A DNA stretch of 63,814 nucleotides, filler included, from Reclinomonas americana ATCC 50394 (GCA_048213135.1; 16 parts of 16 records of this genome joined end to end with filler, not necessarily neighbours in it), one strand, 5' to 3'; shown: positions 1,398-63,700, counted from the first letter of the whole stretch. The notes: a model not told the origin generated them from the letters alone. Program-made: numbers and translations.

Positions 1398-3406
1398 ATG
1401 TCGGGCATGTCCACTCTCGCGGACTTGCTGTGCGAGGCCACTCGCTTGCTGCGTGAGACGAGTGGAGATGAGGGGGTGGAGATTGTGGGGGTAGAGAGGC
1501 CTGCTCCATATGATGTGGCAGTCGTGGGTGGTGTGCCGCCTGCTGGACTTGCATCAACTCATCCACTCATCTCGTCCTCCGTCTGACACCTGGCGTGGCT
1601 GGCGCTGCAGTCTAGTGGCGCGGGGGAGGGCGGAAGGTGTGTGCTTGGGATGTGTTGGATCACCTCTTTGCGCCAATCATGCTGCTCACTCTCGTGTTCC
1701 GGCACAGCAACTCGGAGCGAGTGACTCGGTTTGCTTTCCTTGTCTTCGTCCTTTTCTCCCTTTGCTTGTTCTTCCACGCGAGGCGAGTCTGTGCTGATCG
1801 TGTTTATGTGTGCACGCGCAGCATGATCAATGCACAGCGCATCAATATGGCCTTTGAGGTGGTGGAGGAGGCCGTTCGTTTGCGTTGTCAACGCGCACTG
1901 GCGCAGTTCAGTCGCGACCACCCCGACTTTGATGTGCGAGCGTGGGTGCCGAGTTTCACGCCTGTTGGCGTGGATGCAGTGGTCGGGAAGGCGTGGCGTG
2001 AGCGGCATGCTCCACTCCACCCCTCTCGGGTCAAGTTGTTTGCGGAGAAGCAGCCGGCCTGGCGTGCTGTCCTCGACGCCGACCCGTCGTCCGACCCTCC
2101 GTGTGACGGTTTCGATACGACAGCACTCGCCTCAAGCATGCTGTATGGTGGCTTTGTTGAGGATGACAGTCGCAAGCTGCTGCTGATTGACGATGCTGAT
2201 GAACGAAAGGCGGTGGAGGAGCTGTGCGTGCGTGACGTGAGAAATGAGATCGAGATGGCTCACAAGGATCTCGTGGTGACGGACTTCAATGTGCGGCAAT
2301 ACCTTGGGGATGGTGGTGTCTCCCCCTCCATCCTCTCTCGACTGCAGTTGACGGCTGACGAGCGTACTCGACTCACCGCCCGTGTCTGCGAGGCACGTCA
2401 CGCCCGTCACATCGTGGACACATTTGAGGAGCGACTGCATCGACTGGCTGTGCGTGAGCTCTCCTTCTACCTGCATGACGAGAGTGTGCGCAAGGACATG
2501 CAGGTGTATGTGCCACTGCTGTGCTCACGTGAGCGTGACGTCTCGTCGAGAGACAAGATGATGGATCTGTTGACGGAAGTGGATTCCTTCCTCTCCGACA
2601 CCAACACCACCCAGCGTATGCTGGTGCTTTTCGGCAACAGCGGAGCCGGCAAGACCACCACCATGTCTGTGTTGGCTGAGCGAGCGTGGCGACAGTGGCA
2701 GTCGAGAGGGAGCCGACGAGTGCCTGTGCGTGTGCCTCTTGGTGCGCTGCGCAATGCCGATGAGCGATTGTTGGAGGAGGCACTGGAACGACTGTCGCCC
2801 GAGTTGGGATTGAGACAGATGTGCGACGGTTGAAGGAGGAGCCACTGTTGTTGTTGCTTGACGGGTATGATGAGTTGTACCGTGGTGTGAATTTGTTTGT
2901 CAAGAACCAGTTGGATGTGTGTCGCGATTTGAAGGTGATTATCACCTGTCGTGGGGATTATGCACTGACGGCACTGGGTGGTGTGACACAATATCGACGG
3001 TACTTTGCACCAGTGGATGCACGAGGACAGTTGTGCATGCAGCAGCTGATGGAGCGACACATTGCACCATTCAGCCAGGAGCAAATTAACGAGTATATTG
3101 GGCGAACGGTGCGAGTTGGTGGTGACGATGGTGAAGGGTCAAGGGTCGACTGCCGAGGAGTACATTCGTGCACTGGAGAGTGTGCTTGGACTGGATGCAC
3201 TGGTGTCGAATCCATTCCTGCAGGCAGTGGTGGGTGGATCGTATCTTGTGTGGTTTGTGAAGCGTCATTCGTGATGCAGGTGTTTTTGTATGCTTTGCTG
3301 ATGACATTGTTGTTTGTTTGTTTGTTTGTGTGTGTGTGTGTCATTTGTTTGTGTTCAGTTACTTGTATGGCGGTGTGGGCACGCCTGTGCAAGTTGGCAG
3401 CACTTC
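1398..3406 (+). pseudogene. NACHT/STAND-type P-loop NTPase, disrupted (in-frame TGA and two frameshifts), 3' end lost at spacer
   Basis: Walker A 'VLFGNSGAGKTT' (~2633-2659) in ORF 1637..2833. Walker B 'LLLLLDGYDE' and 'KVIITCR' lie in another frame (ORF 2821..3462). 'IAPFSQEQINEYI' is followed by 'LVSNPFL' in a third frame. In-frame TGA at 1584-1586. No GT-AG intron restores frame at ~2810 or ~3110. Confidence 0.75.
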
Positions 3407-48836: not shown

Positions 48837-49150
48837 CTGTGAGGAGGACACGTGAGAGGCGGAGGGGGAGGGAGGGAGGGAGGGGGAGAAGAAGGGTGGC
48901 GGGCGAGAAGGAAGAGAGGGAGAGGGAAGGGGTGGATGAGGAGATGAAAAGGAAGCAGGAGCGCAGGATGGAGTTGACTGTNNNNNNNNNNNNNNNNNNN
49001 NNNNNNNNNNNNNNNNNNNNNNNNNTTAATTAATTAANNNNNNNNNNNNNNNNNNNNNNNNNNNNNNNNNNNNNNNNNNNNGTCGGTGGCAGGTGCACTG
49101 TCTCCCTAGTCCCCCCTCCCCTCGGTAGCACTCACTCATGCCTCGTGCAG

Positions 49151-52100
49151 GTTCACTGGAAGTGCGAACCTCACTCAATGTCAACAGCGGGCTGTTGTGT
49201 ACAAGTAGCAGCGGATCGAGAAGTGTCGGAATTGGCACGTGCGATCCGCAGGCGTCACTGTCTGTGCAGGGCGGCGTCAAGGCGTCCAGTGGTGTGCCCG
49301 GCAGTGGCGCGACATCTGTATCATCATCTTCAATATCAATATCTACATCAACATCAACCGACGAGCCAGCAGGCACAGCGTCATCGATGACACGTGCGCG
49401 CGCCACGCGGTCCGGGCCATTATCTGACTCGTCTATGGCTCGAGCGTCAACGCAAGACGGACGGGGCATGGACAATACTGGCAGCAGCAGCAGCGGCGGT
49501 GCTTATGGTGCTGGGCTCCTAACGGAGCCTCGAAGCACCAGCGCGGCCGATGTCGGCTTCAGTTTTGCTGGTGAAACCACCGGCATGTATTCCGCGCCGC
49601 CTGCGCTGCGCAATTCGAGCTCGACATCGTCAACGCCTGATGCACTCGGCAACGATCTGCTGCTTCTCCGTGGCAACTCGACAGTCGCGCGCTTTGGCCG
49701 TCACAGCACCGACGGTGAGGTGTTGCTGCTGGGGACGCAATTACACGTCCTCGGCAGTGAGCTGTCGCTGGGCACGAGTCTTGCAGACAGTACCACTGCG
49801 TCGGCCAGCGCGGTGTATAATGCGCGGCGTCGCGCGGTGTCGCTCTTCAAGGAAGCAGACAACACAGTGTCTCTCCATTTGAACCCGTCTGCGACGTTCG
49901 ATGGTGGTGTACGCATCAGCGGGCAGGCCATTCGAGTTTTGCCCTCGAATGGCATGGTCGGTCTGAACACTCTGGCGCCTCAACTCCAGCTGGATGTCAA
50001 TGGAGGGTGTGTACAGCTGTTATTAGATCGCATTCTCTTGTTATCTCCAGTCTTGCATCTCAACGCCCTTGTTTCTTCACGCTCCTCTACCAGCGTTCGT
50101 GCAGCGATGGGCTACCCCGCAGTGGTCGGGGCGTCTGCGGGAAATATCGGTTTCGCTCTCGGCAACGGTCTCAATAGTGGCGTGTATGGTACGATTGTGT
50201 GACTGCTCCATATTATTCCAACCACTGAGTGAGAAAGCTGACCGCGATTATAGCCGCTGCGGATGGGGAAACGGGAATCCGACTGGGACTCTTTGTGAGT
50301 GGCGCACTCGGGTTTGAACTCTCCTCTTCCACCTCGGAGGCTCGTGTCACCGGCAGCCTTCATGTGGCCGGAACGACTGTGCGTTTGGTAGATGGCACTG
50401 CGCTACAAGTCGCAGCTGGCGTGCTTCGCGTCGGATCTCTTGCCGATTACACCTCGTGAGTCACGCTGGCGCTGGTCTTCCGTTTCCGATATTTCTTGTG
50501 TGGTTGAAGTGTGCTTGTTTCCTCCTGTCCCAGTGGATTGGATCTCGGCAGTGGATCTGTTGTGATCTCCAGCTCCGGTCGAGTCGCGATTGGAAACGTG
50601 ACTCCGCAGACTCAACTCCAGGTCGCCGGCGGTGTGCGAGCACTTAGCGGTGGCACGCTGACGTCAACAAACACACTGGACTCCGGCTTCTCGTTCGACG
50701 ATTCCACGGCGATGCTTCAGATTGCGCAAGGTAGGGTTCCACCGACAGCATTGAATCGTTGTGCATTTGGCTTATTGACACTGGTGTTGTGCAGACTTGG
50801 TGTTTCGAGTTGGAGGTCGCGACTCCGTCGTCATTCCAGCCAGTGTCACAGGCACAGTGGACATTCGTAGTGCCGCGCGAGTGACCGGCTTGCTGCATGC
50901 AGACGGCGGTCTGAAAGCGACCACGATCCAAGCCACTGGTCTTGCCACGCTCGACGGCGGAGCCTCTGTGGCCGGACTCGTTGTCGGCGGCAACGTTGTA
51001 GTCGCTGGTAGTGTGCAGGCATCGTCGTTGTCCGACGGCGTGGCCTCAATCAGTGGCGGAAACCTGAGTACCGCCGGGTCTGTCTCTGTTCGCGGCACTG
51101 TGTCGGGAGGCACATTGTCTTCGTCCGGCGCCATCGTCGCCGGAACCTCTGTGCAGACAGGAGGCCTCACCGCAACCACGGCCACCATCGGTGCTCTCAC
51201 GGTTACCGGCAATGCCAGTGCCGGAGGGCAGCTGTCGGCAGGCTCCTTGTCTACTTCCGGTGACGTTTCCGCGTTAAACGTTGTGGCACGCGGGTCGGTG
51301 TCCTCGGCAGGTGTTGTCAGCTCGGGCTCACTGACCACCGATACACTCAACACGCGCGTGGCGACCGTATCAGGCCTGCTTACCGCAGCCACGCTGTCAA
51401 CAAGCGGAAACTTGCAGGCAACGGATGCTGTGCTCAGTGGCAAATTGACTGGCGCGAGCGTGACTGTCACCGGAATTGTGTCTGCCGCCGGTGATGTGCG
51501 CGGTGTGAATATGACTGCAAGTGGCAACATAAGTGGCGCGAATATGACCGCCACATCGCAAGTTACCGCCGCCACAGTTAACTCCGGCACTCTGTTAGTC
51601 GGCGCCGGTGGCGTCAGCAGCGCCGGTTCTATCCGTGGTCCGTCGCTTAGCGTAGCGGGTCAGGTGCAAGCCGACACCATGTTCGTATCCACAAGTGTTC
51701 AGGCCGCGAATTTTCTGACGACCACAAGCTTTCTTTCTCGTGGTCAAGCAACGTTCGAAGGTGGGATTGTCGCTGCCGGCGCGACCATTGCTGGCAATCT
51801 GGAAGCGTCCGGCGGTTTGCACACGACCATGGCCACGGTCGATAGTCAATTGTCCGCAGGAAATATCAGCTCTGCGGGTTCCCTTGTAGCGGCAGTGATC
51901 TCGACAAATGGACGCCTGGTAGCTGGCACGCTGACATCGACTGGATCTGCGTTGATGCAGACCGACTTGCAGGTGCAGGGAACTATTGCTGCCGTCCTCA
52001 TGAGTGCGAGTGGAGGGCTGGTCAGTGGTGGTGGCGGTGTGTCGACGAGTGGGAGTGTGGTAGGCCAGAGTGTGAGTGCGAGTGGCGGAGTGAGTGGTGG

Positions 52101-55100
52101 GAGTGTGTCGAGTGGTGGTGTGGTAGAAGGCAACAGTCTGGTGTCGTCGACGAGTGTGAGTGCGGTGGGGGTTGTGACTGGCGCGAGTCTGTCGACGAGC
52201 GGAGGAGTGACGGCGACATCGGTTGTTGGGAGCAGCAGTGTGAGCAGCGGTGGGATTGTGAGTGGTGGCAGCGTGACGACGAGTGGCAGTGTGAGTGCAC
52301 GCACAATGAGTGCATCGGGAGCGGTGAGCGGCGGGACGCTGTCGACGACTGGCGATGTCGTGAGTGGTGGTGTGGTGAGCGGAGGCACGCTGAGCACTGC
52401 AGGGTCGTTGATTGTCGGAGGCCATGGAAGTGTGAGTGGTGGTGTGACCGCGAGTGGTGTGATTGTCGGCGGGAGTGTGACGACGACCGGCAGCGTGACG
52501 GGTGCGACGGTGATTGCTGGTGCAGGAGGGGTGCTGAGCAGCGGCACGGTGAGTGCGAGTGGAGCACTGATCAGTGGCGGTGGCGGCGTGTCGACGAGCG
52601 GGAGTGTGGTGGGCCAGAGTGTGAGTGCGAGTGGTGGAGTGAGTGGTGGGAGTGTGTCGAGTGGCGGTGTGGTGCAAGGCAACAGTCTGGTGTCGTCGAC
52701 GAGTGTGAGTGCGGTGGGGGTTGTGACTGGCGCGAGTCTGTCGACGAATGGTGGTGTGACGGCGACGTCTGTTGTTGGGAGCAGCAGTGTGAGCAGCGGT
52801 GGGATTGTGAGTGGCGGCAGCGTGACGACGAGTGGCAGTGTGAGTGCACGCACGATGAGTGCGTCGGGAGCGGTGAGCGGTGGGACGCTGTCGACGAGTG
52901 GCGATGTCGTGAGTGGTGGTGTGGTGAGCGGAGGCACGCTGAGCACTGCAGGGTCGTTGCTTGTGGGAGGCAATGGAAGTGTGAGTGGTGGTGTTACCGT
53001 GAGTGGTGTGATTGTCGGTGGTAGTATCAGTACGAGTGGAACCCTGATTGCCGGCGGCGCAGTGACTGCGATCGGTGATGTGAGTGTGCAGGGCGTGTTG
53101 CGCGCGGCGTCTGTGACGGCCAGCGGACCGGTGGTGATGCAGGGGACGATGCGGGTTGCGGGATCGGCAATGCTCGACGGTGGCGCGACGGTGTCGGGAC
53201 TGACTGTGAGCGGCAACATGGATGTGTCGGGTCGAGTGAGTGGATTTGCTGTCAGCGACGGCATTGTGACGATGAGCGGAGGGCGACTGACGACGAGTGC
53301 GGGCAGTGGGACGAGCGACATTGGCAGCAGCAGTCAGGCATTCGGGACGGTGTATGTGTCGAATGTGAGTGCGAGTGGAGTTGTGCGCGGTGCGCGAGTG
53401 AACGACGGTGCAGGATGTGAGCTGAGCGGTGGGTCGCTGAGTGGATGCACGTCTGTGACTGTGCTTGGTGGGGGAGTGAGCACGAGTGGAAACCTGATCG
53501 CAGGCGGTTCTCTGAGCGTCAGCGGGATGGTTTTCGGTGGTAGTATCTCCACTTCTGGCACGTTGGTTGTGGGGCGGTTGATTAGTGATGTTATCGTCAG
53601 CACGTCGGGCACCGTCACTGGCGGTACAATTAGTGTCAGCGGAATCGTGATTGCTGGTGCAGGTGGTGTTTCGACGAGTGGATCGATTTTCAGTGGGTCG
53701 GCGATCAGTGCCGGTGGTGCTCTGAGAGGCAGCAGTCTGTCGGTCAGTGGACTTGTGGAGGGTGGTGGCGGACTGGTGGGATCGTCTGTGAGCGCATCCG
53801 GGCAGATCATTGGTGGCGGAGTCAGCAGCAGCGGGACAGTGAGTGGTCTTATTGTGAGTGGCGGCACAGTGAGCAGCTCTGGCATCGTTGTCGGCAGCGT
53901 GATCAGCAGCGGCGGGGCGCTGACGGCAGGAGACATTTCGACGAGTGGGGGAGTGACGGCCGGCGGGAGTGTATCGGCGACGTCTGTTGTTGGGAGCAGC
54001 AGTGTGAGTAGCGGTGGGATTGTGAGTGGTGGCAGCGTGACGACGAGTGGCAGTGTGAGTGCACGCACGATGAGTGCATCTGGAGCGGTAAGCGGCGGGA
54101 CGCTGTCGACGAGTGGTGATGTTGTGAGTGGTGGTGTGGTGAGCGGAGGCACGCTGAGCACTGCGGGGACGTTTATTGTGGGAGGCAGTGGAAGTGTGAG
54201 TGGTGGTGTGACCGTGAGTGGTGTGATTGTCGGCGGGAGTGTGACGACGACCGGCAGTGTGACGGGTGCGACGGTGATTGCTGGTGCAGGAGGGGTGCTG
54301 AGCAGTGGCACGGTGAGTGCGAGTGGAGCGCTGGTCAGTGGTGGTGGCGGCGTGTCGACGAGTGGGAGTGTGGTGGGCCAGAGTGTGAGTGCGATTGGTG
54401 GAGTGAGTGGTGGGAGTGTGTCGAGTGGTGGTGCGGTGCAAGGCAACAGTCTGGTGTCGTCGACGAGTGTGAGCGCGGTGGGGGTTGTGACTGGCGCGAG
54501 TCTGTCGACGAGCGGAGGAGTGATGGCGACATCGGTTGTTGGGAGCAGCAGTGTGAGCAGCGGTGGGATTGTGAGTGGTGGCAGCGTGACGACCAGTGGG
54601 AGTGTGAGTGCACGCACGATGAGTGCATCGGGAGCGGTGAGCGGCGGGACGCTGTCGACGAGTGGCGATGTTGTGAGTGGTGGTGTGGTGAGTAGTGGAA
54701 CGCTGAGCACTGCGGGGACGTTGATTGTGGGAGGCAGTGGAACTGTGAGTGGTGGTGTTACCGTGAGTGGGGTGATTGTCGGTGGAAGTGTGACGACGAC
54801 CGGCAGCGTGACGGGTGCGACGGTGATTGCTGGTGCAGGAGGGGTGCTGAGCAGTGGCACAGTGAGTGCGAGTGGAGCGCTGGTCAGTGGCGGTGGCGGC
54901 GTGACAACGTCAGGAACCGTTGCTGGCTCGTCGTTCTCCTCGAACGGCACGATATCCGCGTCGACAGTGGATTCGCTGCTTGTGCGCGGCACCACAATCA
55001 GCAGCAGTGGTTTGGTGACTGGCGGCAGCATCAGCACGAGTGGAACTCTGATTGCCGGCGGTGCAGTGACTGCGATCGGTGATGTGAGTGTGCAGGGCAT

Positions 55101-58100
55101 GTTGCGCGCGGCGTCTGTGACGGCCAGCGGACCGGTGGTGATGCAGGGGACGATGCGGGTTGCGGGATCGGCAATGCTCGACGGTGGCGCGACGGTGTCG
55201 GGACTGACTGTGAGCGGCAACATGGATGTTTCGGGTCGAGTTAGCGGATCGGCTGTGAGTGACGGCATTGTGACGATGAGCGGAGGGCGACTGACGACGA
55301 GTGCGGGCAGTGGGACGAGCGACATTGGCAGCAGCAGTCAGGCGTTCGGGACGGTGTATGTGTCGAATGTGAGTGCGAGTGGAGTTGTGCGCGGTGCGCG
55401 AGTGAACGACGGTGCGGGATGTGAGCTGAGCGGTGGGTCGCTGAGTGGATGCACATCTGTTGCTGTGCTCGGTGGGGGAGTGAGCACGAGTGGAAGTGTG
55501 GTTGCGGGTAACGGCGGAGTGAGCACGAGTGGCAGTGTTATTGGCGGGAGCAGTGTGTCGAGCGGTGGTGCGCTGATTGGCGGCAGCATCAGCACGGCTG
55601 GACTGATCAGCGGTGGCAGTCTGTCGTTGACGGGAAGCTTTGTTGTGTCGAGCATTGTCGGTGGAGGGACGCTGAGTGCGAGCGGCGTGCTGATGAGCGG
55701 GGGCGTTGTGACGAGCAGTGGGGCGGTGTTAGGGNNNNNNNNNNNNNNNNNNNNNNNNNNNNNNNNNNNNNNNNNNNNTTAATTAATTAANNNNNNNNNN
55801 NNNNNNNNNNNNNNNNNNNNNNNNNNNNNNNNNNCCAGAGTGTGAGTGCGAGTGGCGGAGTGAGTGGTGGGAGTGTGTCGAGTGGTGGTGTGGTGCAAGG
55901 CAACAGTCTGGTGTCGTCGACGAGTGTGAGTGCGGTGGGGGTTGTGACTGGCGCGAGTCTGTCGACGAGCGGAGGAGTGACGGCGACGTCTGTTGTTGGG
56001 AGCAGCAGTGTGAGCAGCGGTGGGATTGTGAGTGGTGGCAGCGTGACGACCAGTGGGAGTGTGAGTGCACGCACGATGAGTGCATCGGGGGCGGTGAGCG
56101 GCGGGACGCTGTCGACGAGTGGCGATGTCGTGAGTGGTGGTGTGGTGAGCGGAGGCACGCTGAGCACTGCAGGATCGTTGATTGTGGGAGGCAACGGAAC
56201 TGTGAATGGTGGTGTTACCGTGAGCGGCGTGATTGTCGGTGGAAGTGTGACGACGACCGGCAGCGTGACGGGTGCGACGGTGATTGCTGGTGCAGGAGGG
56301 GTGCTGAGCAGTGGCACGGTGAGTGCGAGTGGAGCGCTCGTCAGTGGCGGTGGCGGCGTGTCGACGAGCGGGAGTGTGGTGGGCCAGAGTGTGAGTGCGA
56401 GTGGCGGAGTGAGTGGTGGCAGTGTGTCGAGTGGTGGTGCGGTGCAAGGCAACAGTCTGGTGTCGTCGACGAGTGTGAGTGCAGTGGGGGTTGTGACTGG
56501 CGCGAGTCTGTCGACGAGCGGAGGAGTGATGGCGACATCGGTTGTTGGGAGCAGCAGTGTGAGCAGCGGTGGGATTGTGAGTGGTGGCAGCGTGACGACG
56601 AGTGGGAGTGTCAGTGCACGCACAATGAGCGCATCGGGAGCAGTGAGCGGCGGGACGCTGTCGACGAGTGGCGATGTCGTGAGTGGTGGTGTGGTGAGTA
56701 GTGGAACGCTGAGCACTGCGGGGTCGTTGATTGTGGGAGGCAATGGAACTGTGAGTGGTGGTGTGACCGTGAGCGGCGTGATTGTCGGCGGGAGTGTGAC
56801 GACGACCGGCAGCGTGACGGGCGCGACGGTGATTGCTGGTGCAGGAGGAGTGCTGAGCAGTGGCACGGTGAGTGCGAGTGGAGCGCTGGTCAGTGGCGGT
56901 GGCGGCGTGACAACGTCCGGAACCGTTGCTGGTTCGTCGTTCTCCTCGAACGGCACGATGTCTGCGTCGACGGTGGACTCGCTGCTTGTGCGCGGCACCA
57001 CAATCAGCAGCAGTGGCTTGGTGACTGGCGGCAGCATCAGCACGAGTGGAACTCTGATTGCCGGCGGCGCAGTGACTGCGATCGGCGATGTGAGTGTGCA
57101 GGGCGTGTTGCGCGCGGCGTCTGTGACGGCCAGCGGACCGGTGGTTATGCAGGGGACGATGCGGGTTGCGGGATCGGCAATGCTCGACGGTGGCGCGACG
57201 GTGTCGGGACTGACTGTGAGCGGCAACATGGATGTTTCGGGTCGAGTGAGTGGATTTGCTGTGAGTGACGGCATTGTGACGATGAGCGGAGGGCGACTGA
57301 CGACGAGTGCGGGCAGTGGGACGAGCGACATTGGCAGCAGCAGTCAGGCATTCGGGACGGTGTATGTGTCGAACGTGAGTGCGAGTGGAGTTGTGCGCGG
57401 TGCGCGAGTGAACGACGGTGCGGGGTGTGAGCTGAGCGGTGGGTCGCTGAGTGGATGCACGTCTGTGGCTGTGCTCGGTGGGGGAGTGAGCACGAGTGGA
57501 AGCGTGGTTGCGGGTAACGGCGGAGTGAGCACGAGTGGCAGTGTTATTGGGGGGAGCAGTGTGTCTAGCGGTGGTGCGCTGATTGGCGGCAGCATCAGCA
57601 CGGCTGGACTGATCAGCGGCGGAAGTCTGTCGTTGACGGGAAGCTTTGTTGTGTCAAGCATTGTCGGTGGAGGGACGCTGAGTGCGAGCGGCGTGCTGAT
57701 GAGCGGGGGCGTTGTGACGAGCAGTGGGGCGGTGCTGGGANNNNNNNNNNNNNNNNNNNNNNNNNNNNNNNNNNNNNNNNNNNNTTAATTAATTAANNNN
57801 NNNNNNNNNNNNNNNNNNNNNNNNNNNNNNNNNNNNNNNNTCGTCAATGAGCACGAGTGGTGGGATTGTTGGTGGTGGATCTGTGAGTGTGAGCGGCCTC
57901 GTGTACGGCGGCAGTGTGTCCACGGCGGGTACGTTGACTGTTGGGCGACTTTTGAGCGATGGGCTTGTGAGCACGAGTGGGGTTGTGATGGGCGGGTCGT
58001 TGAGCACGGCGGGGTCTGTGTTTGGTACTGCAGTCAGTGTCAGTGGCACGTTGATTGCTGGTGCAGGTGGTGTTTCGACGAGTGGGTCGATTGTCAGTGG

Positions 58101-60424
58101 GTCGGCGATCAGTGCCGGTGGTGCTCTGAGAGGCAGCAGTCTGTCGGTCAGTGGACTTGTGGAGGGTGGCGGCGGACTGGTGGGATCGTCTGTGAGCGTT
58201 TCCGGGCAGATCACTGGTGGTGGAGTCAGCAGCAGCGGGACAGTGAGTGGTCTTATTGTGAGTGGCAGCACAGTGAGCAGCTCCGGCGTCGTTGTCGGCA
58301 GCGTGATCAGCAGCGGCGGGGCGCTGACGGCAGGAGACATTTCGACGAGTGGGGGAGTGACGGCCGGCGGGAGTGTATCGGCGACGTCTGTTGTTGGGAG
58401 CAGCAGTGTGAGTAGCGGTGGGATTGTGAGTGGTGGCAGCGTGACGACCAGTGGGAGTGTGAGTGCACGCACGATGAGTGCATCGGGAGCGGTGAGCGGC
58501 GGGACGCTGTCGACGAGTGGCGATGTTGTGAGTGGTGGTGTGGTGAGCGGAGGCACGCTGAGCACTGCGGGGTCGTTGATTGTCGGAGGCAATGGAAGTG
58601 TGAGTGGTGGTGTGACCGTGAGTGGTGTGATTGTCGGCGGGAGTGTGACGACGACCGGCAGTGTGACGGGTGCGACGGTGATTGCTGGTGCAGGAGGGGT
58701 GCTGAGCAGTGGCACGGTGAGTGCGAGTGGAGCGCTGGTCAGTGGTGGTGGCGGTGTGTCGACGAGCGGAAGTGTGGTAGGCCAGAGTGTGAGTGCGAGT
58801 GGCGGAGTGAGTGGTGGCAGTGTGTCGAGTGGTGGTGTGGTAGAAGGCAACAGTCTGGTGTCGTCGACGAGTGTGAGTGCGGTGGGGGTTGTGACTGGCG
58901 CGAGTCTGTCGACGAATGGTGGTGTGACGGCGACGTCTGTTGTTGGGAGCAGCAGTGTGAGCAGCGGTGGGATTGTGAGTGGTGGCAGCGTGACGACGAG
59001 TGGGAGTGTGAGTGCACGCACGATGAGTGCGTCNNNNNNNNNNNNNNNNNNNNNNNNNNNNNNNNNNNNNNNNNNNNTTAATTAATTAANNNNNNNNNNN
59101 NNNNNNNNNNNNNNNNNNNNNNNNNNNNNNNNNTTTTGGCAACGTATTCCTGCGTGGCGATCTTTCTTCAAACTCCATTCACGTCACCTCGTCTGCGACC
59201 TTCAGCGGCAGCATCTCCGTTGGTAACCTCACCGCAACTGGCGCCGTGCAGGTCGGCGGCCCGATGACAGCCACATCAATTCAGTCAACGACGCTGACTG
59301 CGAGCGGCGTGATTGTCGGAGGGAGTGTGACGACGACCGGCAGCGTGACGGGTGCGACGGTGATTGCTGGTGCAGGAGGGGTGCTGAGCAGTGGCACGGT
59401 GAGTGCGAGTGGAGCGCTGGTCAGTGGCGGTGGCGGCGTGACAACGTCAGGAACCGTTGCTGGTTCGTCGTTCTCCACGAACGGCACGATGTCTGCGTCG
59501 ACGGTGGACTCGCTGCTTGTGCGCGGCACCACAATCAGCAGCAGTGGTTTGGTGACTGGCGGCAGCATCAGCACGAGTGGAACCCTGATTGCCGGCGGTG
59601 CAGTGACAGCGATCGGCGATGTGAGTGTGCAGGGCGTGTTGCGCGCGACGTCTGTGACGGCCAGCGGACCGGTGGTGATGCAGGGGACGATGCGGGTTGC
59701 GGGATCGGCAATGCTGGACGGTGGCGCGACAGTATCGGGACTGACTGTGAGCGGCAACATGGATGTGTCGGGTCGAGTGAGTGGATTTGCTGTGAGTGAC
59801 GGCATTGTTACGATGAGCGGAGGGCGACTGACGACGAGTGCGGGCAGTGGGACGAGCGACATTGGCAGCAGCAGTCAGGCGTTCGGGACGGTGTATGTGT
59901 CGAATGTGAGTGCAAGTGGAGTTGTGCGCGGTGCGCGAGTGAACGACGGTGCGGGGTGTGAGCTGAGCGGTGGGTCGCTGAGTGGATGCACGTCTGTGGC
60001 TGTGCTCGGTGGGGGAGTGAGCACGAGTGGAAGCGTGGTTGCGGGTAACGGCGGAGTGAGCACGAGTGGCAGTGTTATTGGGGGGAGCAGTGTGTCTAGC
60101 GGTGGTGCGCTGATTGGCGGCAGCATCAGCACGGCTGGACTGATCAGCGGCGGAAGTCTGTCGCTGACGGGAAGCTTTGTTGTGTCGAGCATTGTCGGTG
60201 GAGGGACGCTGAGTGCGAGCGGCGTGCTGATGAGCGGGGGCGTTGTGACGAGCAGTGGGGCGGTGTTAGGGTCGTCGATGAGCACGAGTGGTGGGATTGT
60301 TGGTGGTGGATCTGTGAGTGTGAGCGGACTCGTGTACGGCGGCAGTGTGTCCACGGCGGGGACGTTGACTGTTGGGCGACTTTTGAGCGATGGGCTTGTG
60401 AGCACGAGTGGGGTTGTGATGGGT
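49151..60424 (+). CDS. Giant Gly/Ser/Val/Thr repeat protein with phage/giant-virus tail-fibre-like motifs; at least 4 introns, spans 3 spacers, partial at both ends
   Basis: Introns at 50007-50093, 50189-50253, 50456-50533 and 50731-50794 restore frame. Stop-free ORFs 50797..55782, 55842..57788, 57847..59085 and 59246..60472 follow. Motifs: 'VGIGTCDPQASLSVQG', 'GMVGLNTLAPQLQLDVNG', 'GRVAIGNVTPQTQLQVAG', 'SDIGSSSQAFGTVYVSNV'. Confidence 0.85.
52000..60424 (+). repeat. Higher-order coding repeats: 549-bp (183-aa) unit plus a second block containing the DIGSSSQAF motif
   Basis: 'ggccagagtgtgag' at 52063/52612 and 'ccagagtgtgag' at 55835/56384 (549 apart); second block recurs at ~53020, 55021, 57030 and 59560. 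Confidence 0.92.
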
Positions 60425-60786: not shown

Positions 60787-63700
60787 ATGACCCCGCACCG
60801 ATTCGACCAGTGGATGAGAGCGCGACACCGAATCGGCGCCGTGTGGTGCTCACACCCACTGGGCCTGGTCCATCCGCCCGAAGCAATCAGGTTCTCTTTG
60901 ATCCTATCTGCAACTTGGTATTCTTTCGTCCGTGCACCACTTCTCCGCTTTCCTGTACCACAGGCGAGTTGCGACCCGACGCCACTCCTCTACGCCGAGG
61001 CGCCCACATTCATCTCGTCCTTCCTCAGCAGCATGCGTGCGCTTCCTCCTTACACTCTGCAGTCTCTCTCTTTCCTTTTCGCCCTGCCATGATCCGCACT
61101 CTGAAGGACAACTTTTTTCGCCTTCGCGTTAACATACTGCAATTCTTCACTCCCTTCATTCTCCGCTTGTCCCCATGCTCCATCGTTGTCTTTTTTCGCC
61201 CACCTCGTTCCCTCTCTTTCTTCCCCCTCTTTTCCCCCTTCCTCCCTCTCTCCTCCCCCTTTCCCTCACCCACCTCTTCCCCCCTCGACAGCCCGACTAC
61301 GCCTCCGCCGAATACGTCGAGGTACAACTGCGCGCCCTCCGCTTCTGCGCCCCGCTCCACTCGCTGTGCCTGGCCGGCCTCGACTCGATGATCAGCAAGA
61401 CCAATCAGGACCTGCTGTTGGAGGTCATTGAGCGAAACCTCTCGCTGCGACAGCTGGATCTGTCGCGCAATCCCGCGTGGCTGAACGACGCGCGAGGAAC
61501 GGCGATTTGTGAGTCCTTTGTCCACGTGAGCGTTGGGAAGGGATCGGGCACTGACCTTTGTCTCGTCAGTGACATCGGTGCGCAAATCACCGGCCCTGCG
61601 CTTCCTCGACCTGTCCGAGAACGATGCAGGTCCGCGCACCGCCATGACTGCCGCCCGCACGCTGATGCGCTCGCGGCAACTGCTGGTCGTCGATTTGCGA
61701 CAAAACCCGCCAATGTGCGTCGCGATTGCTTTGATTGCTTGCACCTCCTTGATACTAAATTCTTGCATAGAACCTTGTCGGACGATGCCTCGATTGCGGA
61801 GGCATGGGTGTCGATGCTTTCGCGGCGACGCGATGTGCGGCACATTTTTATCGAGTTTTCCATTGCCGTGCGGCGGCAGTTTTTGGACGCACTGGCCGGC
61901 AAAGTTGCGTGGGGAGAGACAGCGAGAGAGACAACTGCGCACCCACTGCCCCGCACGCTCACCGCATGGCGCACAGGGCATCACTAGCATCCAGTCCATG
62001 TGTTTCTCACAGTCGGCGCTGCGCACACTGCCCGACGAGCGTCAGCGCCTCACCGACTTTATCACGTCACCGCGCGGTCGCGCCCTCACCTTTATTGACT
62101 TGCGCTTTTCGTTCCTCGGCGACGATGTGTCGTGCGTCATCTCGGCGTTGCGGGAGTTGCCGAGCCTGACGCAGTTGGATTTGAGACATTGTGCACTGGG
62201 CGACGCCGGTTTCGCCGCCCTCGAGCCGGTGCTAACGGTGCGTCGTTGTCGATGGTTTTGAGTGTGGAGAGAACTGGAAGGGTGCTGATATCGTGGCACG
62301 CAGTCGCACGTGTCGCTCACGAGCCTGTGTGTCATGTCGAATGACTTGTCGGATGAGTCTGCCGATGGCATTCGTCGTTTGCTGACGGTGAACCCCGTCA
62401 TCACGGAACTGGACTTGTCCAGGAACAGATTTACTGATGTAAGCCTGTCGCGTGCAGTTGCTGTTGGCCGGTTGGCTGGCTGACAAATTCTGTGTACAGC
62501 GATCGGCCTCGTGTTTCGACGACATTGTCGAAGGCAATGAGAGTCTTGTCAGTCTCGGCGACCTGTCTACGTTGCGCTCGTCACCCACATTCGCCCCAGA
62601 AGCCCTTCATTGACTCACACATTTCTTGAATTCGCAGACTGAAGCTGGACGTGCTGTCGCGAAGTCGCCTGCAATCGCACCTCGATGCGACGCAACGCGG
62701 AAACGTGCGCTCCGCTCCGCTGCCAGTTGCGTTTTCGGTGCGCCTGTGTTGGGACGCAGTTGATGCTCACCCGCGGCACACAGTTGCAAGACCATGCATA
62801 CCAACAACTGGCTGTGGACTATGTGCGCGTGAGCGAGGTGGCTTCGGGTTTGCAGGCGCTCAGCACCCGTCAGGCGGGCATTGTGCAGACAGCAACGCAG
62901 CAGCTGGAGGTTTGGTGGAAAATAATGTGCCCTTCTGGCCACAAGTGATGCCCATCTCTGCGACACAGGCGCTGCGTGGATGCGTGTTCCAGCTCGGCGA
63001 GGCGCTCAGCTTGGTCAAATCCAAGAAGAGTCGCCGCGCCCCGCTGTACCTGCGAGTCAAGGATGCCGTTGTAAGGCAAGTGTGACGCAGCTGAAAAAAA
63101 GTCTCCCTTGTTCGCCCGCTCATTATTGTGTCGCCACCACACAGGATGATGGAGTCGATTGGGCTGGAGCCGGAGGAGATCAATGTGCGACTGGACGAGA
63201 AGCCCGCGGGTGGTGCCGGTGGCAGTCGTCCGCGCAAGCGCCGTGCGGCTGCATCCACGGCAGTGGGTAGTTCATCGCGTACACGCAGCGCTCCCAGTGC
63301 TCCTGCACCGCCCGCGGACCGCGCGCGCAGTGCGTCGCCCACCAAACGGCGACCGCGACCACCGGTTTGTTGTCAGCTTAATATTCATGCGCCCAACACC
63401 CACTCGCCCACTCACTCGAGGATGCAGCCGAGCCGTTTTCATGCGGCCCCCACGTACGCTGTGGACGACGCCGGTGTCGAGATGCAGGGGGCGTCCGAGG
63501 GCGACGGTGACTCGGGACGCGAATCGCCCGTCACGGGCCACAAACGCGCCGCCTCCGAGGAGTCATTCAGCGGCCTCATGTCGTCCGTGGCCGCCTCGGC
63601 TGCGCTGGCCACCGAGGTCCGAAGCTCCTCTGCCGGTCCCATGCGGCCCTCCAAACTACGCGCCATTCGCATGCCCTACGTCAGCGACCGCGAAGACGAC

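Follow-up and report, generated by a model that had tools for sequence, protein, structure and literature searches.

Does a eukaryotic cell build one of its own structures from part of a viral fiber? This question is raised by positions 49151-60424 of a stretch of DNA from Reclinomonas americana ATCC 50394 (GCA_048213135.1). The whole stretch that was analyzed, 63,814 nucleotides (nt) with filler included, is called the window. The locus holds a long array of glycine- and serine-rich repeats behind a non-repetitive head, and it appears to encode a giant fiber-like protein. The favored explanation is a functional, spliced nuclear gene of a little-sampled unicellular eukaryote, the product of which would be a cellular surface or secreted fiber of viral-fiber ancestry. 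This explanation is given about an even chance of being right. Phage-type fiber modules are known in protist viruses, and the animal factor MYRF is a known carrier of the S74 chaperone. The viral type of beta-helical fiber is itself known; what is unusual is to find it apparently spliced, codon-adapted, hugely amplified, and conserved in a eukaryote.

Extent and Predicted Structure of the Gene

There are 30 runs of exactly 44 N in the window, paired around the 12-mer TTAATTAATTAA. The window is thus a set of 16 contigs chained by N44-TTAATTAATTAA-N44 linkers, such as the one at 48982-49081. Since the contigs were joined in this way, it is unsafe to read gene neighborhoods across any linker. 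The locus is spread over four contigs, A (49082-55734), B (55835-57740), C (57841-59033), and D (59134-60424). Contig A carries the fiber-like gene alone, and the 5' and 3' gene ends are both missing. When four GT-AG intervals are removed from contig A, a single stop-free frame of 2,101 codons results, beginning at ATG 49138 and running off the contig end. The original prediction had called for at least four GT-AG introns, in agreement with this predicted frame, and for more than 3,000 codons. That length is reached by the sum over the four contigs (2101+635+397+430 = 3,563 codons), while the contiguous minimum, on contig A, is only 2,101 codons. The further claim that no other viral gene is visible in the window turned out to be uninformative because the neighboring stretches are separate contigs. 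The parts of the locus are as follows, with exons and introns as predicted.

49082..49137, + strand, 5' end of contig A; in-frame TAG at 49126-49128, read directly from the sequence
49138..50006, + strand, exon 1; 289 codons plus 2 nt from ATG 49138; two VGIGT-type motifs, DVGFSFAGETTGMYS, and a Ser-rich low-complexity insert
50007..50093, + strand, intron 1; 87 nt, GTGTGT...TACCAG; in frame and stop-free
50094..50188, + strand, exon 2 of the gene model
50189..50253, + strand, intron 2; 65 nt, GTACGA...TTATAG; retention gives TGA and a frameshift
50254..50455, + strand, exon 3 of the gene model
50456..50533, + strand, intron 3; 78 nt, GTGAGT...TCCCAG; retention gives an immediate TGA
50534..50730, + strand, exon 4; third VGIGT-type motif, DSGFSFDDSTAM; weak PHROG tail-fiber matches
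50731..50794, + strand, intron 4; 64 nt, GTAGGG...GTGCAG; retention gives a frameshift
50795..52065, + strand, exon 5, non-duplicated shaft; about 423 codons, modeled as a beta-solenoid, 34% identical to the phage fiber P0001
52066..55734, + strand, exon 5, repeat array; SDIGSSSQAFGTVYVSNV at 53314 and 55318; frame open to the end of contig A
55835..57740, + strand, contig B; 635 codons, stop-free; super-repeat copy, 95.8% identical to A 53966-55728; motif at 57324
57841..59033, + strand, contig C; 397 codons, stop-free; 95.8% identical to part of A
59134..60424, + strand, contig D; 430 codons, stop-free; 96.4% identical to part of A; motif at 59855

The head appears to consist of three modules, each with a VGIGTxxPxxxLxVxG motif followed by GFSF..TGMY. 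Three motifs of the first type had been claimed, and a regular expression found them as VGIGTCDPQASLSVQG (49225-49272), VGLNTLAPQLQLDVNG (49957-50004), and VAIGNVTPQTQLQVAG (50583-50630). The GFSFAGETTGMYS-type segments that had also been described are present in the head. In exon 1 (49300-49560), a Ser/Thr-rich low-complexity insert of about 90 residues is located between the VGIGT motif and the GFSFAGETTGMYS segment of the first module. The second and third modules do not contain such an insert.

Introns 2, 3, and 4 are predicted to be required for the frame, since read-through gives a stop or a frameshift. The case for intron 1 comes solely from the motif that its removal restores, because this interval is 87 nt long, in frame, and without a stop. 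Its splicing would join LQLDVNGG to VRAAMG and so rebuild L-x-V-x-G-G-V-[KR]-A, which is intact in both other head modules. A comparable intron (about 62 nt, GT...polypyrimidine...CAG) is present in the DDX23 gene on another contig. The start of the protein is uncertain because there is a TAG 9 nt upstream of the candidate ATG, no signal peptide at this sole candidate start (MPRAGSLEV...), and a pyrimidine-rich tract ending in CAG at 49147-49149 that is a candidate 3' splice site. The true N-terminus may be located on another contig.

Repeat Array and Purifying Selection

The array is composed of 549-nt (183-residue) units nested in a super-repeat of about 2,004 nt (668 residues), with copies that are 89-97% identical. 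Each 668-residue super-unit is marked by the junction motif DIGSSSQAFGTVY, which occurs four times in the window and in no other window open reading frame (ORF) of at least 60 residues. Four punctuating motifs had been expected, and SDIGSSSQAFGTVYVSNV was indeed found at 53314, 55318, 57324, and 59855. Contigs B, C, and D are further copies of the super-repeat (94-98% identical) and not duplicates of A; the copy on D is 97.6% identical to B. No related piece is present on any other contig of the window. Contigs A and B stop at one common repeat position, and D reads across it. When mapped on D, the last base of B adjoins the first base of C with no base lost. The order of the four contigs in the window is consistent with one locus split by the assembler, and their adjacency is partly supported, not proven.

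The array is protein-coding and under strong purifying selection, and it is neither a satellite nor a decaying relic. There are no stops in the + frame in 1,646+635+397+430 = 3,108 repeat codons. Long antisense frames are also open over the repeats, at 51595-54909 (-; 1,104 codons) and 53334-55337 (-; 667 codons), and are P/L/T-rich or H/R/T-rich. Since frames are open on both strands, open frames alone are weak proof of coding. Between A and B, the + frame has 60.5 synonymous and 12.5 non-synonymous differences, which correspond to a synonymous divergence (dS) of 0.137, a non-synonymous divergence (dN) of 0.010, and a dN/dS of 0.07. The ratio is 0.066 for A-D, 0.055 for B-D (in B's own frame), 0.20 for A-C, and 0.15-0.26 for copies within contig A. 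The two remaining + frames give ratios of 1-9. Because the copies differ mostly at synonymous sites, the repeat can be regarded as conserved coding sequence. The + frame is preferred only because it is long and uninterrupted, continues a predicted spliced head, and carries fiber motifs. The antisense P/L/T-rich frame was considered as a gene and rejected; it is interrupted by stops and has no head. Both antisense frames are judged to be by-products of the repeat.

The repeats also have third codon positions of their own. From 52001 to 60424, C is avoided at this position (GTG 74%, ACG 67%, and AGT plus AGC 77% of Ser), and the GC skew is +0.37 to +0.45, unlike that of the gene's own head and of the other contigs. 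Such C-poor third positions fit a recently amplified unit. Contig D opens with a unique segment of 62 residues (59135-59320; FGNVFLRGDL..., FGNVFLRGDLSSNSIHV...) that is found nowhere else in the window and begins within a variant of the DIGSSS..FG.V motif. This segment could come from further along the gene or from a paralogue.

Resemblance to Viral and Phage Fibers

Exon 1 was searched with HMMER against 1.84 billion representatives. There were 34 matches at E<=1e-3, all through the VGIGTxxPxxxLxVxG module; the best was at 1.7e-9 and none was found at E 1e-10. Peptidase_S74 is present in 7 of the 34 matches. Others contain Collar, Gp53-like_C, Peptidase_G2, C1q, Chlorovi_GP_rpt, or collagen, and no family was identified in 13. 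The three head motifs can be aligned with a module that recurs in the S74 protein P0014. Exon 4 has weak PHROG tail-fiber matches (E 0.0024 and 0.0089).

The shaft led to 13 long metagenomic proteins. The best of these was P0001, with E 3e-16 and 34% identity over 398 columns. The score between the shaft and P0001 is 17.8 standard deviations above residue shuffles and 10.2 above 6-mer block shuffles; as it exceeds the latter, the repeat register is shared and not the composition alone. The P0001 family occurs at 67 distinct viral loci in IMG/VR. At one of these (L006), a tailed phage, a major head protein (E 7e-101) and a head maturation protease are encoded beside three P0001-family genes. 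At its C-terminus, P0001 has matches among the virion proteins of PA5oct-like jumbo phages. The junction motif x[LI]G[ST]....[WF]..[LIV][YF] was found at 30 of the 67 viral loci, for example as NIGSSSNYFNTVF; its sole occurrences in the window are the four copies of DIGSSSQAFGTVY. The original prediction had described the motifs of the window protein as typical of fiber proteins, and both the Peptidase_S74 domains among the exon 1 matches and the viral loci of the P0001 family, a tailed phage included, bear this out.

The phage locus L006 (8131-21368) is on a jumbo-phage contig with a record of 343 kb. Three or four consecutive repeat-shaft fiber genes directly follow the head genes there, and their products are 1,534, 1,187, 1,226, and 405 residues long.

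Close relatives were not found in pattern scans of 2.9 million viral contigs, metagenome contigs, and prokaryote genomes, nor in the protein-library search with exon 1 or in a word-index search with the DIGSSS region that covered proteins of 905-2,881 residues only. With tblastn, the shaft matched none of 50,697 phage records, and the low-complexity filter may have hidden a match. Peptidase_S74 (PF13884) had no match at E<=1 in 8 pieces spanning the four contigs; the frame runs off contig A, and the true C-terminus is outside the data. The chlorovirus Vp260 repeat family that had been proposed was not borne out, having no Pfam match at E<=1. Pfam and NCBIfam gave nothing above threshold, and the NCBIfam rows were at chance level only. 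When exon 1, the shaft, the super-repeat, and P0001 were used to search the PDB by sequence, the only match was one acyltransferase (E 0.4). The ESM Atlas provided leads only, to bactofilin and haemagglutinin-repeat clusters. Membership in Bactofilin was considered and rejected, since the matches reached 16.3 and 13.9 bits against a gathering cut-off of 27.9.

Composition and Predicted Fold

The shaft is composed mostly of G (22%), S (21.5%), V (16%), T (11%), and A (9%), which together account for 80% of its residues, and it is nearly uncharged. Residue autocorrelation peaks at lags 5-6, 11, 17, 22, and 28, and the strongest Fourier period of the hydrophobic residues is 5.72. This period indicates that each turn of about 17 residues is made of three strand-turn units. 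A eukaryotic mucin-like protein was considered and rejected; proline accounts for only 4 of 1,646 residues, the hydrophobic residues are spaced with a period of 5.7 residues, and the predicted structure contains beta strands.

An AlphaFold model of the non-duplicated shaft was built with an alignment of 17 viral shaft segments. It has a predicted local distance difference test score (pLDDT) of 63.9 and a predicted template modeling score of 0.50, with 147 residues at a pLDDT of 70-90, and it is all beta. Without an alignment, a single 668-residue super-repeat gave a pLDDT of 43.7, which is unusable. When the shaft model was compared with 48,161 chains by VIA-align, all of the 50 top-ranked matches listed were beta-helix or beta-solenoid proteins. 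These include YdcK (Z 17.6), EtpA (Z 15.7), Vag8 (Z 15.4, root-mean-square deviation 3.9 over 277 residues), a bacterial antifreeze beta-helix (Z 15.2), tapirin (Z 15.1), HMW1 (Z 13.9), phage tailspikes (Z 11-13), and LpxA-type left-handed helices. Foldseek found no match for the model in the PDB at E<=1e-3, and for this reason the fold is assigned at class level only. At that level, the shaft is predicted with moderate confidence to be a three-sided beta-solenoid rod. The fiber fold that had been proposed is thus supported by the AlphaFold model and not by the Foldseek search.

In BFVD, 14 matches to the shaft model were found at E<=1e-3. They belong to uncultured caudoviruses, cyanophage S-CAM7, Ostreococcus and Pyramimonas viruses, and a Peptidase S74 protein of Gaeavirus. 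These matches are not fully independent because viral rows were used to build the model. A three-chain prediction of a 300-residue repeat segment (52066-52965), made with no controls, scored 0.00 and speaks neither for nor against a trimer.

Possible Architecture and Function

The gene product would be a giant, nearly uncharged, rod-like beta-solenoid of at least 2,101 residues and probably more than 3,500. Its head would contain three phage-fiber-type modules, like the neck/shaft modules of S74-type fibers, that would nucleate folding or oligomerization. The shaft would consist of stacked strand-turn units of 5-6 residues, about 17 residues per turn, amplified as 183-residue units inside 668-residue super-units. 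Each super-unit, with a DIGSSS junction and two cysteines, would serve as a segment or hinge. At 0.48 nm per turn, the roughly 97 turns of exon 5 on contig A would add up to a single-chain solenoid of about 46 nm, and the four contigs together to one of about 88 nm. If three chains were intertwined instead, the length would roughly triple. Judging from composition alone, the Ser/Thr-rich uncharged surfaces could carry O-glycans. By analogy with viral fibers and bacterial beta-helical adhesins, the protein would be exported and could serve as a stiff surface or secreted filament for adhesion, as a coat, or for prey contact. Its ancestor was most likely a captured viral or phage fiber gene that would have been resident long enough to gain host introns and host codon usage. 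As a very regular natural beta-solenoid, with about 97 predicted turns in one exon, the protein also deserves attention from the standpoint of repeat-protein structure.

Cellular Gene or Resident Virus

The head of the gene has host-like sequence features. Its codon usage correlates with that of seven other coding regions of the window (r = 0.90), and its trinucleotide correlation with 16 other pieces has a mean of 0.744, the host per-piece means being 0.536-0.831. The predicted introns, the head codon usage, the trinucleotide profile, and the lack of a close relative in the searched collections favor a long-resident nuclear gene. The original prediction had gone further and described a spliced, host-style gene that had been domesticated. 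Short host-type GT-AG introns and host-like head codons agree with this, but domestication is unproven, as nuclear viruses share such introns according to the excerpts cited below.

A number of points weigh against a cellular fiber of viral ancestry. The introns are computational predictions only, with no RNA support. Codon usage of the repeats agrees less with that of the other genes of the window (r = 0.57), and the GC content at third codon positions (GC3) of the gene is 0.60-0.62, below the 0.71-0.82 of conserved window genes. The antisense frame that shares the wobble position has an equally low dN/dS. With both gene ends missing and no signal peptide at the candidate start, export is purely inferred. 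The kinship with fibers consists of short motifs and a periodic low-complexity pattern, the latter possibly convergent; no exon 1 match reached E 1e-10, and the alignment between the DIGSSS motif and P0009 (E 0.024) is not significant alone. The shaft model is of moderate confidence, and having been built with viral rows it may have biased the BFVD matches; it also had no Foldseek match in the PDB.

The strongest alternative is that the locus belongs to a nuclear or integrated virus (a polinton-like virus, virophage, mirusvirus, pandoravirus-like virus, or endogenous giant virus). The protein would then be a virion fiber for attachment to the host and not a cellular structure. Excerpts from one study (PMC12768974) report 37,703 GT-AG introns in mirusviruses, with a length peak near 80 bp and an enrichment in virion morphogenesis genes, and spliceosomal introns in pandoraviruses, a few chloroviruses, and decaying endogenous giant viruses as well. 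Since nuclear viruses appear from these excerpts to carry comparable GT-AG introns, the intron argument for a host gene is weakened. Polinton-like viruses integrated in protist genomes encode modular phage-like fiber proteins that can reach 3.9k residues and often have Peptidase_S74 at the end, according to excerpts of a second study (PMC12220804). A virus would also agree with the low GC3, with the viral or fiber-like nature of every detectable relative, and with contig A holding this gene only and no flank that points to a cellular setting. It fits less well with the scans of 2.9 million viral contigs and of metagenome contigs, which gave no close relative, and with the codon usage and trinucleotide make-up of the head, which cannot be distinguished from those of the other contigs. 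No viral hallmark domain was detected in 15 large ORFs scanned on the other, unlinked contigs. A dS of about 0.13 between super-repeat copies, with strong purifying selection, fits a long-lived locus, and a virus is still compatible with it. Because contig A has no flanks, the viral explanation is kept as a serious one; it is considered unlikely, and clearly less probable than the evenly balanced cellular fiber.

It is rather improbable that the protein is a cellular beta-solenoid that arose independently of viruses, for example, a bactofilin-like intracellular polymer, an ice-binding or antifreeze protein, or a component of an extrusome or cell coat. The motifs and the G/S/T/V periodicity would then be convergent. 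Weak matches to Bactofilin (E 0.012 and 0.068) agree with this, as do the bactofilin and haemagglutinin-repeat leads from the ESM Atlas and fold matches that include the antifreeze beta-helix (Z 15.2) and LpxA-type left-handed helices. So do the missing signal peptide at the candidate start and a viral similarity that is limited to low-complexity repeats and motifs of 13-16 residues. However, the better Bactofilin match, at 16.3 bits, is below the cut-off of 27.9, Peptidase_S74 is present on 7 of 34 exon 1 matches, and two distinct fiber motifs occur together with the 17-residue register, as they do in the viral family. That the organism has no such gene, the locus being instead an assembly artefact, non-coding satellite DNA with chance open frames, or contamination from bacteria or phages, is hardly credible and largely refuted: for it speak the long open frames on both strands (1,104 and 667 codons in antisense), the short contigs breaking at one common repeat position, and the single 368-nt piece of an independent assembly that matched the head, and against it the third-position bias, the dN/dS of 0.06-0.26 between copies, four frame-restoring GT-AG introns, which bacteria and phages lack, and a make-up that resembles the other contigs.

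The cellular surface or secreted fiber thus continues to be favored. A more specific form of it is that a protist captured the shaft and neck of a fiber from a phage or giant virus, added introns and host codons, and amplified the gene to encode a rod of more than 3,500 residues that builds a cellular structure such as a surface hair, a scale, an adhesive filament, or an extrusome thread. This full scenario is doubtful, and it is rated a little below the viral explanation. If it is true, this would be the first viral fiber shaft, rather than a chaperone domain as in MYRF, to be a structural part of a eukaryotic cell. At stake is whether cells have adopted the load-bearing part of a viral fiber or whether intron-bearing nuclear viruses of an unsampled lineage of protists make fibers that are far longer than those known.

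Other Contigs and Public Data

The other contigs contain ordinary eukaryotic genes, including that for the DDX23/PRP28 helicase (Pfam E 7.9e-13). It is located as follows.

35071-37872, + strand, gene for a DDX23/PRP28-type splicing helicase; short GT-AG introns of about 45-62 nt

The best library relatives of the DDX23 ORF are from plants, green algae, and fungi and are only 44-52% identical. From this identity, it appears that the DNA is from a eukaryote with no close sequenced relative in that collection. Weak Pfam matches were found in the ORFs at 1616-2833 (+), 27714-28793 (+), and 61530-62261 (+). These are AAA/NACHT/STAND-type P-loop and TPR matches below the curated cut-offs and a borderline LRR_6 match (23.8 vs. 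23.4 bits), and they hint at the expanded STAND/LRR repertoire that is common in protists. Rfam and tRNA scans of the window found nothing.

Three small public DNA runs were available. One contained 0.12 of the sampled words, and two contained next to none. In an independent assembly, a single piece of 368 nt covers 49208-49575 and is identical to the window; there was no other cover. No RNA dataset was found among the public runs searched.

Comparison With Known Systems

The closest resemblance is to the P0001-type phage fibers, which are repeat-shaft proteins of uncultured tailed and jumbo phages. These are also built of 5-6-residue units with a 17-residue period, share 34% identity with the window protein over about 400 residues (well above shuffles), and contain the x[LI]G[ST]....[WF]..[LIV][YF] junction motif. 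Their length of 1,100-2,700 residues is counted as a further likeness. The viral consensus is ATGNVTGGNxxTxGxxS, and the pattern of the window protein is S/T-hydrophobic-S-x-S-G. The viral proteins have N where the window protein has S. In addition, the viral genes are intronless and the viral proteins lack the 549/2,004-nt higher-order amplification. At the N-terminus, the P0001-type fibers carry an adaptor with a weak Phage_T7_tail match, and at the C-terminus they carry a domain that also occurs in virion proteins of PA5oct-like jumbo phages. The available window sequence, which misses both gene ends, gave no sign of either one.

The fibers and spikes of phages, bacteria, giant viruses, and polinton-like viruses that end in S74 share the recurring module G-x-VGIGT-x-x-P-x-x-x-L-x-V-x-G-x-V-[KR]-A, and S74 proteins of Gaeavirus and cyanophage S-CAM7 are among the BFVD matches of the shaft model. 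They differ in that no S74 match was found in the 8 window pieces; the 3' end is missing, and absence from the full gene is not implied. The chlorovirus Vp260-like glycoproteins (Chlorovi_GP_rpt, PF06598) are linked to the locus by two exon 1 matches that carry the repeat, P0024 with a score above the cut-off and P0036 with one slightly under it, whereas the window protein has no PF06598 match at E<=1 in any piece. Bactofilin (PF04519) is a beta-helix with about 6 residues per side to which the window protein has weak matches (E 0.012-0.068). Bactofilins, however, are proteins of about 100-200 residues and not giant arrays.

In its predicted long three-sided beta-solenoid, the window protein resembles single-chain bacterial beta-helical adhesins, both autotransporter passengers (Vag8, Ag43, and TibA) and two-partner-secretion proteins (HMW1, EtpA, and FHA), and the beta-helical region of an Antarctic bacterial antifreeze protein. 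The better-fitting rows of this set have Z 13.4-15.7 and root-mean-square deviations of 3.4-5.5 over 235-277 residues. This modeled likeness suggests that the window protein may act as a stiff extracellular rod. The adhesins have no sequence relationship to it; the window protein lacks a TPS domain and a beta-barrel translocator, and its gene is eukaryotic with introns.

The eukaryotic transcription factor MYRF/MrfA contains a triple-beta-helix of the phage tailspike type and an ICA (S74) domain, as described in excerpts of two studies (PMC3742443, PMC8326128). What MYRF kept, according to these excerpts, is the chaperone/self-cleavage module, which is used for regulated proteolysis, whereas the window gene keeps an amplified shaft and head motifs, and no ICA domain was seen in it. 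On the same excerpts, MYRF/MrfA provides a precedent for a phage fiber or spike module that has been retained by eukaryotic cells.

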